Source: a virus
Direction: 5' to 3' (one strand)
Length of the DNA stretch: 64,000 nucleotides
Virus record (IMG/VR): IMGVR_UViG_3300022746_000018
The position numbers and the translations under genes were made by a program. Each line of letters begins with the position of its first letter. Position 1 is the first letter of the stretch. The notes beneath the pieces are model-generated. The model did not search any database, had not been told where the DNA came from, and saw only the letters and a program-made list of their open reading frames with translations. Shown here piece by piece: positions 28,246-39,188 of this stretch.

Positions 28246-28421
28246 TACTTATCCTTGCTGTAAAATCCACTACCGTTAAATGTAATGGCTCCAATGTTGT
28301 ATACTTGAGTCATTTTGTTACCGCATTTTTCACACATGTGAGTTGGTGTAGGTGCAGTAATTGATCTTGTTTCTGATAAAGTAGTTTCACATTCACGACA
28401 AATATATTGGTATGTTGGCAT
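28245..28421 (-). CDS. FmdB-family zinc-ribbon protein (58 aa)
   Basis: Hand-translated MPTYQYICRECETT...CEKCGNKM... It is TAATG-coupled at both ends. Confidence 0.6.
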   Translation of the reverse strand: MPTYQYICRECETTLSETRSITAPTPTHMCEKCGNKMTQVYNIGAITFNGSGFYSKDK

Positions 28422-29143
28422 TAACCCAGAGCCTTCCAGGTAAGCGGACCAACAACTCCATCGGCCTTTAGTCCCGACTTCTTCTGAAGGGCTGCAACAG
28501 CCTTGTGAGTGTTGCTACCAAAGAATCCTACTTCATCTCCAGTAACACCAAGAGTTGTTTGAAGATACTTAACTGCTGCACCCTCAGAACCCTTCTTTAG
28601 TTCTCCAACAAGCTTTGGCTTGGCTGGCTTCTTTGGTGCTGGAGCAGCGACAACTGCTGCTGGAGCCTCTGCCTTTGGTGCTGCTGGAGCAGCAGGAGCA
28701 GACCCTGTAGAATTTTTTGTAATGTGCTTAATAGGATCAATTAGCTTATCATATGGTGCTAGGTGACCATTCTTTTGCTTTGACATTCCTAGGTGAAGGT
28801 GGGCCCCAGTGCTTGCGGATCCACTTGGAGTATTGCGTCCTCCACCAACACGACCAATAGGTTGACCAAGAGTAACAAGATCTCCTACCTTATAGCTTTG
28901 TGGCTTTGCTGCAAGGTGACAGTATTGAGCGTAAACTCCATCTTCACCTAGCACTTCTACAACGTGACCAAGAACATCAGACCAGAAAATCTGAGTAACT
29001 TTTCCTGCAGTAATTGCTGGAATGATTGTCTTTTCTGCTGGATGCCAGTCTTGTCCACGGTGTGGGTGCTTGCGGTATGAAGCCATGTTTCCGAATTCAT
29101 CACCACGTAATTTCTTATCAAATGGTTCTTTATAAAGTGCCAT
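28421..29143 (-). CDS. endolysin: M23 peptidase + peptidoglycan-binding domain
   Basis: HRGQDW...H.H.G M23 pattern, an Ala/Pro linker, and a C-terminal YLQTTLGV...ALQKKSGLKADGVVGPLTW PG_binding_1 pattern. Confidence 0.85.
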   Translation of the reverse strand: MALYKEPFDKKLRGDEFGNMASYRKHPHRGQDWHPAEKTIIPAITAGKVTQIFWSDVLGHVVEVLGEDGVYAQYCHLAAKPQSYKVGDLVTLGQPIGRVGGGRNTPSGSASTGAHLHLGMSKQKNGHLAPYDKLIDPIKHITKNSTGSAPAAPAAPKAEAPAAVVAAPAPKKPAKPKLVGELKKGSEGAAVKYLQTTLGVTGDEVGFFGSNTHKAVAALQKKSGLKADGVVGPLTWKALG

Positions 29144-31755: not shown

Positions 31756-31935
31756 CTAAACAAGAATTTTTATTACTGGGGCACATGGATCTCCGCCATC
31801 TTCCCATTCTTTTTCTTCTTCTTCTGTCATATATGGATCGCCATCATGCGTGTAACAGAATGGCTCAGTTACCCAACCATTCTTAATACCAACATCAAGC
31901 CATTCATACATTTCTGTATAATTTACTTCACTCAT
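31756..31935 (-). CDS. hypothetical acidic protein (59 aa)
   Basis: Internal ATG of track ORF 31756..31992 follows GAAGGGG. The track start lies in the promoter -35. Confidence 0.6.
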   Translation of the reverse strand: MSEVNYTEMYEWLDVGIKNGWVTEPFCYTHDGDPYMTEEEEKEWEDGGDPCAPVIKILV

Positions 31936-32010: not shown

Positions 32011-32391
32011 TTACACAACTGTATCTTCATCTACTGGTGGGTGTTTGTATTTCTTATCTGGGACATAACCCGAAACAGCCTCATAAGGGTGATCAATTGG
32101 AAGATCAAGTGGTCCTTCCGCAAGCTGTTTAACTGCTGCTTCTGGATTATCGATATTCTTAAGCTTGACTGTCTGTTGAAAAGCTGCATTGATTTCATCC
32201 TTAGTTAACTTTCCATCTTCTAGGAATGCTAGAGATAGAAGTTCGATTACTTTAGCTACCGCCAAAATACCTCCCATTGTTGCTGCAAGCACTGGTGGAA
32301 CTCCACCGATTGCTCCTGCACCAATTACTCCAAGTGCTGATGCTACGAATGTTGCGACAATACGCATTATTACATTTCCGAATAACTTCAT
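32011..32391 (-). CDS. membrane protein (126 aa)
   Basis: Track ORF with the RBS GGAGAGGAGGAG and N-terminal TM helices. Confidence 0.75.
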   Translation of the reverse strand: MKLFGNVIMRIVATFVASALGVIGAGAIGGVPPVLAATMGGILAVAKVIELLSLAFLEDGKLTKDEINAAFQQTVKLKNIDNPEAAVKQLAEGPLDLPIDHPYEAVSGYVPDKKYKHPPVDEDTVV

Positions 32392-32392
32392 A

Positions 32393-32569
32393 CTACTCCT
32401 CCTCTCCTTGTGAATTTCTAAATGGGTAAGTTACTGCCCACAAACCTAGTGTTCCTAGAATGCAGTATCCTACTATAGTTTTGGCTGAACCTTCTAGAAC
32501 AATCCATGCTACAAACATACCTAGAAGAGTCCAGGCTTGTTCAAGAATATCTTTAATTATTTTTTTCAT
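32393..32569 (-). CDS. small membrane protein (58 aa)
   Basis: Hand-translated MKKIIKDILEQAWTLLGMFVAWIVLEGSAKTIVGYCILGTLGLWAVTYPF... ATGA overlap with the PA14 gene stop. Confidence 0.55.
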   Translation of the reverse strand: MKKIIKDILEQAWTLLGMFVAWIVLEGSAKTIVGYCILGTLGLWAVTYPFRNSQGEEE

Positions 32570-34569
32570 CTTGTTTCCCTCCTATTAGGTTTATTTGTTT
32601 CTGTTTTTTCATTACCGCCAGAACTACCGCCTGACGAGCCACCAGAGCCTCCTGTGGACCCTGTAGAAGCTGCTGAGGTTGCTGCACCTGTAGCAGCACT
32701 TACGGCTGCTCCTGTGGCTACAACGGCTGCGATAACCTCTTTCTTGGCTTTCTCACGAGTAGCTGGTGCCATGTCTGCACCAACATTTCCCATAAAGTTA
32801 ATAGCTGCAATGGCTGCTACGGCAGCTTGCCCTACACCTGGAATAGCAGCAAGGGCTGGATCAACTTGAATATCGTCTGCTTGAGCAGCAACAAACAGGG
32901 CATCTAGGGCTTTTTCATATTCTGGAGAGCCTTCCTTGGCTGTCGCCAAGACTTCATTTGCTGCTAAGACTAATTGCGTTACTTCGGCTGAAGACAATTC
33001 TTGAGGATCAATTGAAGAAATGTCTACAGGTAGCTTAGGTTCTGGTTGAACTTCTGGGGTTGATACTTGCTCTGGAGTTCGTGTCGGGATTGGCTCAGGC
33101 GTTGCTGGCTCTTGAGTAGGTTCCGAGGACGGCGTAGGTGTAGATGTTGGCTCTTCCGTAGGTGGAATGGTTGGTTCCACGGTTGGTTCTTGAGTTGGGA
33201 CAACTACTGGCTCCTCTGTTGGCTCTACCGTTGGTAACGGTGTTGGTTCTATTATACCTGTTGTTTCAGATGGTGCAGGTGTGGGAGTAGGCGTAGGAGT
33301 TGCATTAGCAGCTGCTTCTGCAGCTTGTCTGGCAGCCTCTTCTGCTGCCAATTGAGCTTGTCTAGCTGCTTCTTCTGCTGCTGCGACTGCGGCAAGTCTA
33401 TCTCTTTCTGCTTGAGCAGCAATAGCTGCTTGCTCTGCAGCAATCCTATCCGCCTCTGCTTGAAGTGCTGCTGCTTGCTCTGCTTGTTGCTGTGCAAGTT
33501 GTTCTGCAGCAATCCTATCTGCTTCAGCTTGAGCAGCTTGTTGTGCTGCAAGAGCATCTGCTGCTGCTTGCTGGGCAATCCTATCTGCTTCTGCTTGTTG
33601 TTCTGCTAATAACGCTGCAGCTTCTGCATCTGCTTGAGCCTGAGCTGCTTGCTGTTCTGCCAAAATTCTAGCATTTTCTGCATCTATTAATGCTTGAGCA
33701 TCATCAACAGCTTGTTGCAGTAATGGCATGGCTTGAGTTGCAGTGTCTAGTCTAATTTGTGCTTGTTGTTGTGCGATTTGAGCAGCATCCAATTCTTGTT
33801 GTGCTTGATTTAAAATAAGTTGTTTTTCTTGGACTATTACTAATAATGCTGGATCATTAACCATTATAGTAGTAGCTGTTTGACCAAACCATGCTGCAGG
33901 AACTACCCCCCAGTTACCTGAATTTTGATAATATAAAGTAGAACATGCCCCTCCACCATTTTCATAGAACCAGGCATCAAGAGTGTAAGCATGACCAGCT
34001 TCAAGATTTATTGGATACCAGTTACCTCCACAACCTTTGTCTCGCCATTCGGGAATAACTACCTGACCATCTAAGGTCATGTAAAACCCATCATCTGCTA
34101 TGTTGCGGAAATAGTATTGTCCACTTGTCGGCACAGTTAATGTTCCATAATAATGAATAGTTACCCAGTCAGAATTACATCCCATGACAGATCCACTACC
34201 CCAGTTAGCAGAGATTTGGCTAACAGTGTCGTGACGACATAATTGCCATGCCTCTGGAGTTCTGCTAATTATATTATTATAAATATCTACAGATAGTCCA
34301 GATCCACTAGAAGTTGTTTGTGAAATTAAATTAGTATCATAGTTAGTTTGTGCTATTGTTAGTTCTTCTTGAGCAGCAACTACGGCTGCTAATTTATTTA
34401 CAACCAATAAGTCTGCATCTGCTTTAGCTTGGGTAGCGTCAGATAGCTCTTGCTGCCCTGCCAAAAGAGCCGATTGAGCTTCTTCTAGTGTTTGTGCTTT
34501 TGCAGGGGTTATTATAAAGAGGGATATAGTTGCTAGTGTTATTGCTGTTAAAAATCTAAGAGTTTTAAT
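32566..34569 (-). CDS. secreted PA14-domain coiled-coil protein with PT-rich linker and C-terminal hydrophobic anchor
   Basis: Track ORF 32566..34464 (TTG start). The same frame stays open 35 more codons up to a TAG at 34582-34584. Those codons encode a Sec-type signal peptide (IKTLRFLTAITLATISLFIITPAKA). AGGAG lies 9 nt before an ATT at 34569. PA14-like block GTLTVPTSGQYYFRNIADDGFYMTLDG. Confidence 0.7.
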   Translation of the reverse strand: MKTLRFLTAITLATISLFIITPAKAQTLEEAQSALLAGQQELSDATQAKADADLLVVNKLAAVVAAQEELTIAQTNYDTNLISQTTSSGSGLSVDIYNNIISRTPEAWQLCRHDTVSQISANWGSGSVMGCNSDWVTIHYYGTLTVPTSGQYYFRNIADDGFYMTLDGQVVIPEWRDKGCGGNWYPINLEAGHAYTLDAWFYENGGGACSTLYYQNSGNWGVVPAAWFGQTATTIMVNDPALLVIVQEKQLILNQAQQELDAAQIAQQQAQIRLDTATQAMPLLQQAVDDAQALIDAENARILAEQQAAQAQADAEAAALLAEQQAEADRIAQQAAADALAAQQAAQAEADRIAAEQLAQQQAEQAAALQAEADRIAAEQAAIAAQAERDRLAAVAAAEEAARQAQLAAEEAARQAAEAAANATPTPTPTPAPSETTGIIEPTPLPTVEPTEEPVVVPTQEPTVEPTIPPTEEPTSTPTPSSEPTQEPATPEPIPTRTPEQVSTPEVQPEPKLPVDISSIDPQELSSAEVTQLVLAANEVLATAKEGSPEYEKALDALFVAAQADDIQVDPALAAIPGVGQAAVAAIAAINFMGNVGADMAPATREKAKKEVIAAVVATGAAVSAATGAATSAASTGSTGGSGGSSGGSSGGNEKTETNKPNRRETR

Positions 34570-34585
34570 TTGGGGTTTCTCCTAG

Positions 34586-34599
34586 TTGGAAGTTTCCAA
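34586..34599. promoter_or_regulatory. 14-bp palindrome TTGGAAGTTTCCAA between -10 and RBS
   Basis: The 13-mer TGGAAGTTTCCAA is repeated exactly at 11963-11975. Confidence 0.5.
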
Positions 34600-34606
34600 C
34601 AAAATA

Positions 34607-34615
34607 ATTATAACA
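34607..34615 (-). promoter_or_regulatory. extended -10 promoter (TGtTATAAT)
   Basis: TATAAT at 34612-34607 on the - strand. No good -35. Confidence 0.5.
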
Positions 34616-34621
34616 TTATTT

Positions 34622-34655
34622 AGATAAATAAAAAGAGGGGGCTTTCGCCCCCCCT
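34622..34655 (-). terminator. rho-independent terminator after nrdF
   Basis: GGGGGC-GAAA-GCCCCC followed by UCUUUUUAUUUAU. Confidence 0.8.
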
Positions 34656-34662
34656 TGTTTAG

Positions 34663-38204: not shown

Positions 38205-39188
38205 TTACTTGAGAAGTGCAACCTTGTGCTTTGGATTAGCCTTGTTCCACTTTGCAGCAAGAGCATTATACTTAGCCTTGTTGCCAGCAGTAGCAGCATC
38301 TGCAAGGGCAAGCTTTGCAGTAAGGTCTGCAACCTGTGCAGATAGAGCAGTCTTTTCAGCAGTTAGTGCAGTTACCTTGCCATTTGCCACAGCAAGTTCT
38401 GCATCCTTTTCTGCTACTAGAGCAGCAAGGTCTACAACCTTAAGGGTTCCACGAACGAAACCTACAGGAGCAGCAAGACCAGTAATAGCAGTTGCTACAG
38501 TAGCAGTTGCAATTAAATCATACGAACCTACAGCAAGACCAGTCAGCTCCTTGGTAGCTTCGCCTCTTGCATCAGTGCTTACCGAATAGGTATTGGTGGC
38601 AGTGCCACTAACTACCTGAATTGCTACAGTTGAACCTGCAACAGCATTTCCGAATACGTCAGTTCCAGCTACAGTTACCTTAGCAGTGGTGCCAAGAGCA
38701 GCAGTTGGTGCTGAAAGTGCAATAGTATTTAGTGCACCTGCAGTTCCCTTTACGTAATAAGTTCCAATAGTAGCAGTTCCAGCGGTGATCACAATCTTTC
38801 CAACAGCAGTTGACTTAGTGTAGGCATAGAACGTAGCACTAGTTCCAGTTCCAGTAGCAACAGAAGCAGATGCGGTTCCTGCAGAAGCAGTAACAGAGTC
38901 TCCAACAGTGGATACAAGAAGTGCATTGGTTGCAGTAGCGGTTACGGTTACGTTGTTGTCTAGACCAGTAACAGCAATACGAACTGCATCAGTTACCTGA
39001 ACAGCATTATCTGCTGGGACTGGAAGGATAACGGCGGTTGCCTCAGTTAGACCATCGGTGGTGGTTGCTACAGCATTAACAGTTAGACCAGTTGCTACTG
39101 CAGCGTTTGCAGGTGCAGCAACTAGTGCGGTTGTAGCAAGTGCTACTGCAGTGGCAATAGCGATAAGTGGCTTCTTTAGTGAAGTCAT
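38205..39188 (-). CDS. Sec-signal Thr/Ala/Val-rich beta-repeat protein with C-terminal coiled coil
   Basis: Signal peptide MTSLKKPLIAIATAVALATTALVAAPANA. Ig-like low-complexity repeats. C-terminal heptads AEKDAELAVANGKVTALTAEKTALSAQVADLTAKL. Confidence 0.8.
   Translation of the reverse strand: MTSLKKPLIAIATAVALATTALVAAPANAAVATGLTVNAVATTTDGLTEATAVILPVPADNAVQVTDAVRIAVTGLDNNVTVTATATNALLVSTVGDSVTASAGTASASVATGTGTSATFYAYTKSTAVGKIVITAGTATIGTYYVKGTAGALNTIALSAPTAALGTTAKVTVAGTDVFGNAVAGSTVAIQVVSGTATNTYSVSTDARGEATKELTGLAVGSYDLIATATVATAITGLAAPVGFVRGTLKVVDLAALVAEKDAELAVANGKVTALTAEKTALSAQVADLTAKLALADAATAGNKAKYNALAAKWNKANPKHKVALLK

Follow-up and report, generated by a model that had tools for sequence, protein, structure and literature searches.

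The window examined here, a stretch of 64,000 nucleotides from a virus (IMG/VR record IMGVR_UViG_3300022746_000018), carries on its minus strand a gene for a protein with a PA14 lectin domain. This gene most likely starts at an AUU codon (ATT, first base at 34569) and not at the TTG codon of its annotation. Taken as a whole, the data make it probable that the gene encodes an AUU-initiated, Sec-exported, and membrane-tethered PA14 protein of a lysis-type module, a reading that covers no specific role of the protein.

Proposed Start Codon and Predicted Signal Peptide of the PA14 Gene

Gene callers assign to this gene an open reading frame (ORF) of 632 amino acids (aa) (P0001) that begins with TTG at 34462..34464 (all window features given here lie on the minus strand). 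The frame remains open upstream of this codon as far as a TAG (34584-34582), with 39 intervening codons that include no ATG, GTG, or TTG. The TAG is located four codons 5' of an ATT (34567..34569), which follows the Shine-Dalgarno (SD) sequence AGGAG (34579..34583) with a 9-nt spacer and is succeeded by the 35 codons lacking ATG, GTG, and TTG. An initial annotation of this DNA had pointed out that the TTG start drops 35 in-frame codons, that no canonical start lies between the TAG and this codon, and that the ATT 9 nt after AGGAG is the only well-placed one. The upstream frame is open as described, the second statement was confirmed, and the ATT recurs at the same position in diverged relatives. 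Initiated at the ATT, the gene spans 34569..32566 (667 codons), and the frame reads IKTLRFLTAITLATISLFIITPAKA/QTLEEAQ (slash, predicted cleavage site). It is the only long ORF of the window that combines an SD sequence, an ATH codon, and the lack of a canonical alternative.

The TTG at 34464 was judged not to be a start. The Leu it encodes is replaced by Tyr or Ala in the closest homologues (P0002-P0004), and no SD sequence of the AGGAG or GGAG type was seen before it on reading of the sequence. The cluster of the 632-aa protein occurs on contigs of at least five independent assemblies (two from ENA, three from JGI), and the leaders of five assemblies are identical to that of the window, save one base upstream of the SD sequence in L004, which excludes that the start codon results from faulty assembly or sequencing. 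Samples with this phage include JGI 3300022747, JGI 3300023700, and ENA ERZ27249398. The unconserved TTG residue and the identical ATT in five assemblies thus support the non-canonical start that had been proposed. Readthrough or recoding of the TAG was ruled out, since all other genes are normal under translation table 11 and the homologues need none. An in-frame mini-ORF (TTG-GAA-ACT-TCC-AAC-TAG, 34599-34582) was considered as a re-initiation device and rejected; it is not conserved, has no SD sequence, and lies inside the leader hairpin described below, and in its region the frame is open upstream in L025, L031, and others.

Residues 1-25 of the extended protein (34495..34569) form a predicted Sec-type signal peptide for signal peptidase I (SPase I), MKTLR-FLTAITLATISLFIIT-PAKA followed by Q, with an n-region charge of +2, an uncharged core of 18 residues, and Ala at -3 and -1. 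The cleavage region of the window protein has an AxA site as recognized by SPase I and no lipobox Cys. The mature N-terminus predicted after cleavage is the semi-tryptic peptide QTLEEAQSALLAGQQELSDATQAK. The consensus xKxLRxFAAL...P.L...PAxA is conserved in the family, and a rule-based check recovered both the basic n-region, hydrophobic core, and AxA site described earlier for the window and a signal peptide of this kind in 60/60 distinct family members.

A search with residues 1-260 yielded 113 protein clusters, all of them metagenomic or from uncultured Caudovirales and most with a PA14 domain. Complete N-termini of these homologues begin with MKALRTIAALFV..., MKALRKFAALFV..., or MTRKLRIFTAFLL... 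and display the same basic/hydrophobic/AxA layout, ending right before (T)LEEY/AQ; many of them initiate with ATG or TTG exactly opposite the window ATT (MKALR..., MTRKLR...). This shared layout indicates that the extension is conserved coding sequence and that the ATT stands opposite the initiator codon of the homologues. The presence of the extension in relatives, to which the initial annotation had tied its reading of the start, was thus found, in many cases with ATG or TTG at the equivalent position. Public calls for members with ATT or ATA start at internal TTG or ATG codons, e.g. P0009, which begins inside the hydrophobic core (MFAAISVL...), so that the database entries of these members are devoid of all or part of the signal peptide. 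A megablast search of the locus against GenBank phages gave no match, and tblastn returned distant PA14 matches only.

Start-Codon Usage Across the Family

In IMG/VR, 509 related stretches were found and 79 loci were fetched; at each locus, the PA14 frame was extended upstream to a stop codon and the signal peptide was located. About 60 distinct leaders were distinguished, with ATT as the start codon in 20, ATA in five (plus L071), CTG in one, TTG in 24, ATG in seven, and GTG in four, so that ATT, ATA, and CTG together account for ~43% of the distinct leaders. Members of the ATT/ATA class offer no usable canonical codon from the upstream stop to the hydrophobic core (in L037, the ATT comes immediately after a TAA), and ATT or ATA without a canonical alternative is found at the same position in many relatives at 30-79% identity. 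The overlapping downstream gene of the same loci served as a control and starts with ATG in 44, GTG in five, and TTG in three cases (n=52), whereas the PA14 gene in these loci starts with ATT (18), TTG (18), ATG (7), ATA (5), GTG (3), or CTG (1).

The specificity of this arrangement was assessed with a pattern scan (AGGAG, 5-10 nt, ATH or CTG, an ORF of at least 100 codons, and no usable canonical start nearby). The pattern occurred 23 times in 647 kb of these loci (both strands), and 23/23 occurrences belong to the PA14 family. For comparison, AUG accounts for 80% of the starts annotated in bacteria and non-canonical codons account for 0.004-0.024% (PMC5499595). Initiation factor 3 (IF3) discriminates against AUU, which is the codon most sensitive to this factor (PMC5499595).

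Leader of the PA14 Gene

The PA14 gene is separated from the upstream operon by the intrinsic terminator of nrdF, the gene of the small subunit of ribonucleotide reductase (34633..34656; a 10-bp stem with seven GC pairs, then a T run). Downstream of it lies a predicted extended -10 promoter, TGtTATAAT (34607..34615; TATAAT 34612-34607), the assignment of which is based on conservation. T6, A7, T8, A9, and T11 of the box do not vary among 16-20 diverged leaders, and the TG two bases before it varies hardly at all; 18/20 leaders of the ATT class have a TATAAT-like box.

About 7 nt after the -10 box and 1 nt before the SD sequence, the leader contains a hairpin (GTTGGA-AACT-TCCAAC, 34585..34600) with a folding energy of -7.4 kcal/mol (z = -2.7). 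In an alignment of 16 leaders, 86.6% of the cells are compatible with pairing vs 17-46% in slid controls, and covariation is seen at pair 23-36 (GC 8 / AU 7) and pair 25-34 (five pair types). Hairpins of other sequence occupy the same place in L060/L066, L059, L013, L022, and L079, and distant members carry stems such as CAGAC/GTCTG, GTTAAG/CTTAAC, or TGGCT/AGCCA there. The ATT-class leader hence follows a common plan of upstream terminator, TGnTATAAT, ~7 nt, hairpin, 1-2 nt, AGGAG, 7-9 nt, and ATT. The idea that the hairpin is a general element of this phage was discarded, as the window holds no second leader of this kind: TATAAT...GTTRG does not occur elsewhere in it, and the other matches to GTTGG...CCAAC are in distant regions, unlinked to any such leader. 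By analogy, the hairpin most likely serves mRNA stabilisation, and it may also act as a protein operator; 5'-terminal stem-loops are known from the ompA, ermC, and aprE leaders.

SD strength was compared among the start classes by counting full AGGAG motifs at 5-12 nt from the start and by the mean match to the anti-SD sequence. A full AGGAG precedes 17/20 ATT starts (mean match 5.3), 3/5 ATA starts (4.8), and 4/24 TTG starts (4.5), and is found at 0/7 ATG (3.7) and 0/4 GTG starts (3.5). Across the family, SD strength is thus inverse to start-codon strength. In addition, codon 2 of the ATT genes is AAA or AAT in 17/20. A subgroup with TTG starts (L020, L030, L048, and L054) presents a different structured initiation region before the same gene, with the SD sequence GGGAG in a hairpin loop and the 3' arm of the hairpin running into the start codon (TCAAT-gggag-ATTGA-TTG, e.g. 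L020:3960-4003).

Several views of the AUU codon can be weighed against these data. The start may be genuine and yet be without regulatory meaning, weak start codons being tolerated and drifting among TTG, ATT, ATA, and CTG; this is conceivable, though rather unlikely. Start codons switch frequently on a maximum-likelihood tree of 50 distinct PA14 cores (16 changes overall, with at least 6-7 changes of the ATT label and five of the ATA label), on which the window and L006 (both ATT) adjoin L007 (TTG), and TTG starts occur as often as ATT starts. The non-canonical codons are spread over several clades; in one separate clade, 15 rows comprise 12 ATT, two ATA, and one ATG, in proteins diverged by several substitutions per site. 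Mere drift does not fit the strong under-representation of ATG, with seven of about 60 leaders vs 44/52 in the neighbouring gene, nor an SD strength that compensates for codon weakness. Moreover, the ATT class shares the extended -10, the covarying hairpin, and AAA or AAT as codon 2 and looks tuned, which does not prove sensing of IF3; likewise, SD compensation argues for tuning of initiation and not necessarily for sensing.

It is very improbable that the ATT is a decayed ATG in a poorly expressed or dying gene without a functional start. Although ATT is one base away from ATG and non-canonical starts are rare overall (PMC5499595), the frame of 667 codons is intact and identical in five assemblies from different samples, ATT or ATA is kept together with a perfect AGGAG in many lineages diverged to 30-40% identity, and no frameshifts or stops were seen. 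The annotated start, which would yield a cytoplasmic 632-aa protein behind an accidentally open frame and which has in its favour a canonical TTG and the choice of every gene caller (P0001), is hardly tenable: more than 60 diverged relatives have preserved the 35 upstream codons as a signal peptide, all indels being in frame, the TTG residue is not conserved, no AGGAG- or GGAG-type SD sequence was seen before this codon, and the conserved Cys residues of the PA14 domain suit an exported protein.

Protein Architecture and Fold

An AlphaFold2 model based on a 90-sequence alignment (mean pLDDT 75.5) shows a signal helix (residues 2-18), a helix comprising residues 28-79 with pLDDT above 90, and the PA14 lectin domain (33859..34326, residues 82-237), a beta-sandwich likewise modelled with pLDDT above 90. 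A helix of 175 residues follows (residues 240-414; this helix and that of residues 28-79 lie within 33328..34488), with pLDDT above 90 to about residue 330; it runs into Ala/Glu/Gln repeats resembling TolA domain II, to which matches are weak. Residues 415-515 (33025..33327) constitute a disordered Pro/Thr-rich linker of roughly 100 residues, with pLDDT below 50 and no secondary structure. The conserved C-terminal part (32569..33024; motif N-x-G-A-D-M-A/S-P..R..A-K-K) is composed of a small helical domain (residues 527-595; pLDDT about 90 for residues 520-570), a predicted anchor helix (residues 602-634), and, at its end, a disordered Gly/Ser and basic tail. The helices, PA14 domain, PT linker, and C-terminal helix with a basic tail found by Pfam and AlphaFold agree with the architecture outlined in the initial annotation.

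The PA14 assignment is supported by Pfam (PF07691, residues 107-218, 31.7 bits vs a cutoff of 24) and by Foldseek, with E = 3.5e-11 to the PA14 domain of RsgI3 (6qe7) and about 1e-9 to a sugar-bound Marinomonas PA14 domain. In Foldseek and HMM comparisons, the head is most similar to RsgI3 (6qe7/6qdi), followed by the Marinomonas adhesin, Lap, and the yeast Epa/Flo lectins. The motif ADDG (D159 D160 G161), which includes the Asp-Asp pair of the sugar/Ca motif of PA14 domains, is invariant in the family, its DDG being aligned with that of 6qe7 and 6m8m. Four Cys residues are nearly invariant in the PA14 domain and fit an extracytoplasmic location, which is predicted from the sequence. In BFVD, the only matches are other "PA14 domain" proteins of uncultured phages, and PHROGs matched the protein only via its low-complexity region.

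The family consensus at the C-terminus is NIGADMSPxxRxKAxKxxVxTVV...RR, i.e. N-I/V-G-A/N-D-M-S/A-P..R..A-K-K, a hydrophobic helix, and a basic end. The phage protein has no LPxTG or LAxTG motif, and a comparison of this protein, its partners, and two homologues with NCBIfam gave no match and hence no known sorting signal.

The closest cellular PA14 domains (44-51% identity) are found in signal-peptide proteins of metagenome-assembled genomes (MAGs) of Micrococcales, Rhodoluna, and Aquiluna. Their presence in surface proteins of Microbacteriaceae suggests a host origin of the lectin head combined with a phage-specific anchor, and the hosts are likely monoderm Actinobacteria. A 301-aa surface protein of a Rhodoluna sp. 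MAG (L086, 4776-5681) combines a signal peptide and the sortase signal LADTG with a PA14 domain that shares 51% identity with that of the phage protein; a host protein of this type is a possible donor of the head.

The Genomic Module

The gene directly 3' of the PA14 gene (32393..32569) encodes a 58-aa protein with two hydrophobic segments, i.e. a predicted two-transmembrane (2-TM) protein, and overlaps the PA14 gene by ATGA (AGATGA, 32569/32566). A partner gene of 53-67 aa holds this position in 51/53 complete loci, with an overlap of 1-7 nt or a start up to 2 nt past the PA14 stop; in L026 and L035, one gene is inserted between the two. The partner contains the strongly conserved motif WT(L/F)(L/V)G(M/L)F.AW.VL.GSAKT.VG. 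It is followed, after a 1-nt gap (TAG-T-ATG), by the gene of a 126-aa holin-like membrane protein (32011..32391; phrog_26427, 2e-21; phrog_443 "holin", weak at 1.3e-3). In relatives, too, the gene next to the partner gene usually encodes a holin-like protein (motif MKLFGNV.MRIVA.F.AS.LGVIGAGA). Of the ATGA coupling to two membrane protein genes reported initially, the first junction was confirmed, whereas the second is this 1-nt gap. Phrog_26427 is annotated as "nuclease"; the 126-aa protein is a glycine-zipper membrane protein with two hydrophobic segments, so that this label looks wrong and holin-like appears to suit it better.

In 7/10 relatives sampled, a gene with CHAP and PG_binding_1 domains or a Peptidase_M23 domain comes directly after the module. 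The window encodes a Peptidase_M23 plus PG_binding_1 hydrolase, a candidate endolysin by family match (28421..29143). A contiguous holin/endolysin cassette is therefore found in relatives, and in the window the holin-like gene is adjacent and the hydrolase downstream. The conserved order of PA14 gene, 2-TM gene, holin-like gene, and hydrolase gene indicates that the PA14 gene heads a lysis-type module. The protein had also been viewed in the context of a virion component; nothing shows that it belongs to the virion, and its gene stands beside holin-like and cell-wall hydrolase genes.

Further observations concern the surroundings of the module. A small acidic protein without a family match (MSEVNYTEMYEWLDVGIKNGWVTEPFCYTHDGDPYMT..., motif W..G...GW.....C.THDG.P) is encoded at 31756-31935 and recurs just downstream of the module in L032-L034, L052, L064, L069, and L073. 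In L008 (6984-7184) and L009, the 2-TM partner gene is succeeded by that of a Cys/Pro-rich lipoprotein of 66 aa (lipobox LSLTGC), o-spanin-like in size and composition, and then by genes for a transmembrane (TM) protein and a CHAP hydrolase. Between the near-identical genomes L001 and L002, one cassette is swapped at a site some 4 kb downstream from the PA14 gene, where L001 and the window have DUF6065 plus HNH and L002 has Peptidase_M23, Zn_ribbon_8, and DUF7455. A second predicted signal-peptide protein of the window (38205-39188) adjoins the terminase region and has a sub-threshold match to the Ig-like domain Big_1 (28.5 bits vs a cutoff of 34.9).

Proposed Mechanism and Role

On the basis of the anatomy, conservation, synteny, and fold computed here, a course of events can be proposed for the promoter, the use of AUU in vivo, export, topology, and role. 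Transcription would start from the host-type extended -10 just downstream of the nrdF terminator and yield a short leader, the 5' end of which would fold into a 6-bp hairpin, followed by the perfect AGGAG, a 9-nt A/C-rich spacer, and AUU-AAA. Initiator tRNA would read the near-cognate AUU, and the strong SD sequence and the A-rich codon 2 would partly offset the weak codon. Since this compensation is partial, output would be set low, and it would possibly depend on IF3. The signal peptide of the nascent chain is predicted to be cut by SPase I after Ala25 upon Sec export, and the C-terminal helix would tether the mature protein to the cytoplasmic membrane, probably together with the 2-TM protein. 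The putative Ca-type PA14 head would be held out on the long helix and the Pro/Thr stalk, which appear long enough to cross the actinobacterial wall.

Some points weigh against this picture. A sigma-70 scan did not list the leader promoter because a -35 element is missing, and the promoter and transcription start were deduced from the consensus and the conserved TGnTATAAT only. The signal peptide was judged by simple heuristic rules. The C-terminal helix is rich in Ala/Gly and borderline hydrophobic (about 1.6 on the Kyte-Doolittle scale, computed by hand) and is short in some relatives, which renders membrane anchoring uncertain. In the window, the hydrolase is not adjacent to the module but 3.4 kb away from it, with endonuclease VII, a tRNA/ncRNA cluster, and DUF6065 in between. 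As to IF3, dependence in the uncultured host can be called possible at most.

The role tentatively favoured for the protein is that of a low-copy lysis accessory or regulator by which envelope glycan is read or bound. The weak start implies low abundance, the nearest structural relatives are glycan sensors of transmembrane regulators, and the gene is welded to those of small holin-type membrane proteins, all of which point in this direction. The further step, that the AUU or AUA start, the perfect SD sequence, and the hairpin act together as a translational gate, sensitive to IF3, at the head gene of the lysis module, is speculative and at present seems unlikely.

Nearly as plausible as a lysis regulator or sensor is a surface lectin of the infected cell that is no lysis factor and masks or binds wall glycan, with superinfection exclusion, prevention of re-adsorption of progeny, or cell-cell sticking as possible, if somewhat doubtful, effects. 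The gene has its own predicted host-type promoter, the closest cellular PA14 domains belong to wall-anchored (LAxTG) proteins of freshwater Microbacteriaceae MAGs, e.g. Rhodoluna, and the fold is like that of adhesins. Such a lectin is harder to reconcile with the near-universal coupling to the 2-TM and holin-like genes and with the hydrolase gene that comes next in most of the relatives sampled, and the low copy number implied by the weak start would be a poor fit to the masking of an abundant receptor.

A function like that of a unimolecular spanin (u-spanin), spanning the envelope from the C-terminal helix to an outer layer held by PA14 and disrupting this layer at lysis, is improbable. The protein is like T1 gp11 in its predicted topology, with a signal at the N-terminus and a helix at the C-terminus, and in being encoded next to holin-like genes; the neighbours are of the lysis type, and the helix of residues 602-634 is borderline hydrophobic. 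There is no sequence or fold match to spanins; the absence of a lipobox and the likely monoderm actinobacterial hosts are what make this role unlikely.

Comparison With Known Systems

To our knowledge, conserved AUU or AUA starts have been recognized for very few genes, namely infC (encoding IF3) and pcnB. As in these Escherichia coli genes, a near-cognate AUU (or AUA/AUC) behind an SD sequence is kept across orthologues, and infC also begins with AUU-AAA. AUU initiation as proposed here is thus of a known kind. In contrast to infC and pcnB, the gene of the window is a phage gene for a protein predicted to be exported, its family mixes ATT, ATA, CTG, and TTG with few ATG, and no autoregulatory logic is evident. 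What is new at the level of initiation is the family-wide avoidance of ATG, the covarying leader hairpin, and the inverse relation of SD and codon strength, for none of which a description was found in the literature.

The PA14 domain of the anti-sigma factor RsgI3 (6qe7, 6qdi) is the best match in both sequence (5e-19) and fold (3.5e-11). Like the phage protein as predicted here, RsgI3 is membrane-anchored with an extracytoplasmic PA14, which in RsgI3 binds polysaccharide. RsgI proteins differ in having an N-terminal anti-sigma domain and tandem C-terminal PA14 domains. In the phage protein, the predicted signal peptide precedes only one PA14 domain, close to the N-terminus, and the putative anchor is C-terminal; a partner sigma factor was not seen. 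PA14 heads of adhesins (Marinomonas MpIBP, 6x7x/5j6y; Lap, 6m8m; yeast Flo5/Epa1) share the beta-sandwich, the Asp-Asp motif, and a long stalk, but show 12-16% identity and other modes of anchoring, and the phage protein is encoded in a lysis-type module. The closest cellular PA14 domains, those of signal-peptide surface proteins from freshwater Microbacteriaceae (Rhodoluna MAG, L086), are a likely source of the phage domain; the host protein ends in an LAxTG sortase signal, whereas the phage protein has its own C-terminal motif and a 2-TM partner.

The u-spanin T1 gp11, which has an N-terminal signal and a C-terminal helix and is encoded beside holin genes, and the antiholin T4 RI are likewise exported or membrane-tethered, non-enzymatic, and holin-linked in gene position. 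They have no sequence or fold similarity to the phage protein, which is far larger, carries a lectin head but no lipobox, and would act in a monoderm host. The protein family itself is new as well, being one of lectin stalks that belong to a lysis module and have an anchor motif and a partner of their own. Literature searches turned up neither a description of the family nor one of AUU starts in exported phage proteins, nor a paper that joins PA14, phage, and lysis cassette.

Implications

Gene calls examined for members with ATT or ATA are shortened and have lost the export signal (P0001, P0009), and consequently the family looks cytoplasmic in databases. Gene finders confined to ATG, GTG, and TTG will go on missing the start of this abundant family of freshwater phages. 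A family that trades codon strength against SD strength represents a natural series for studying the tuning of initiation and its control by IF3 in Actinobacteria and their phages. The lectin, exported according to the prediction and presented on a long stalk with a 2-TM partner, would be an undescribed component of the lysis or surface-remodelling modules of actinophages. If the translational gate were real, it would let the phage gauge the IF3-to-ribosome ratio of its host, a quantity that changes with growth rate, in the cold, and late in infection, and the amount of an envelope-spanning, glycan-sensing PA14 regulator, hence the time of lysis, would be set by the translational state of the host.

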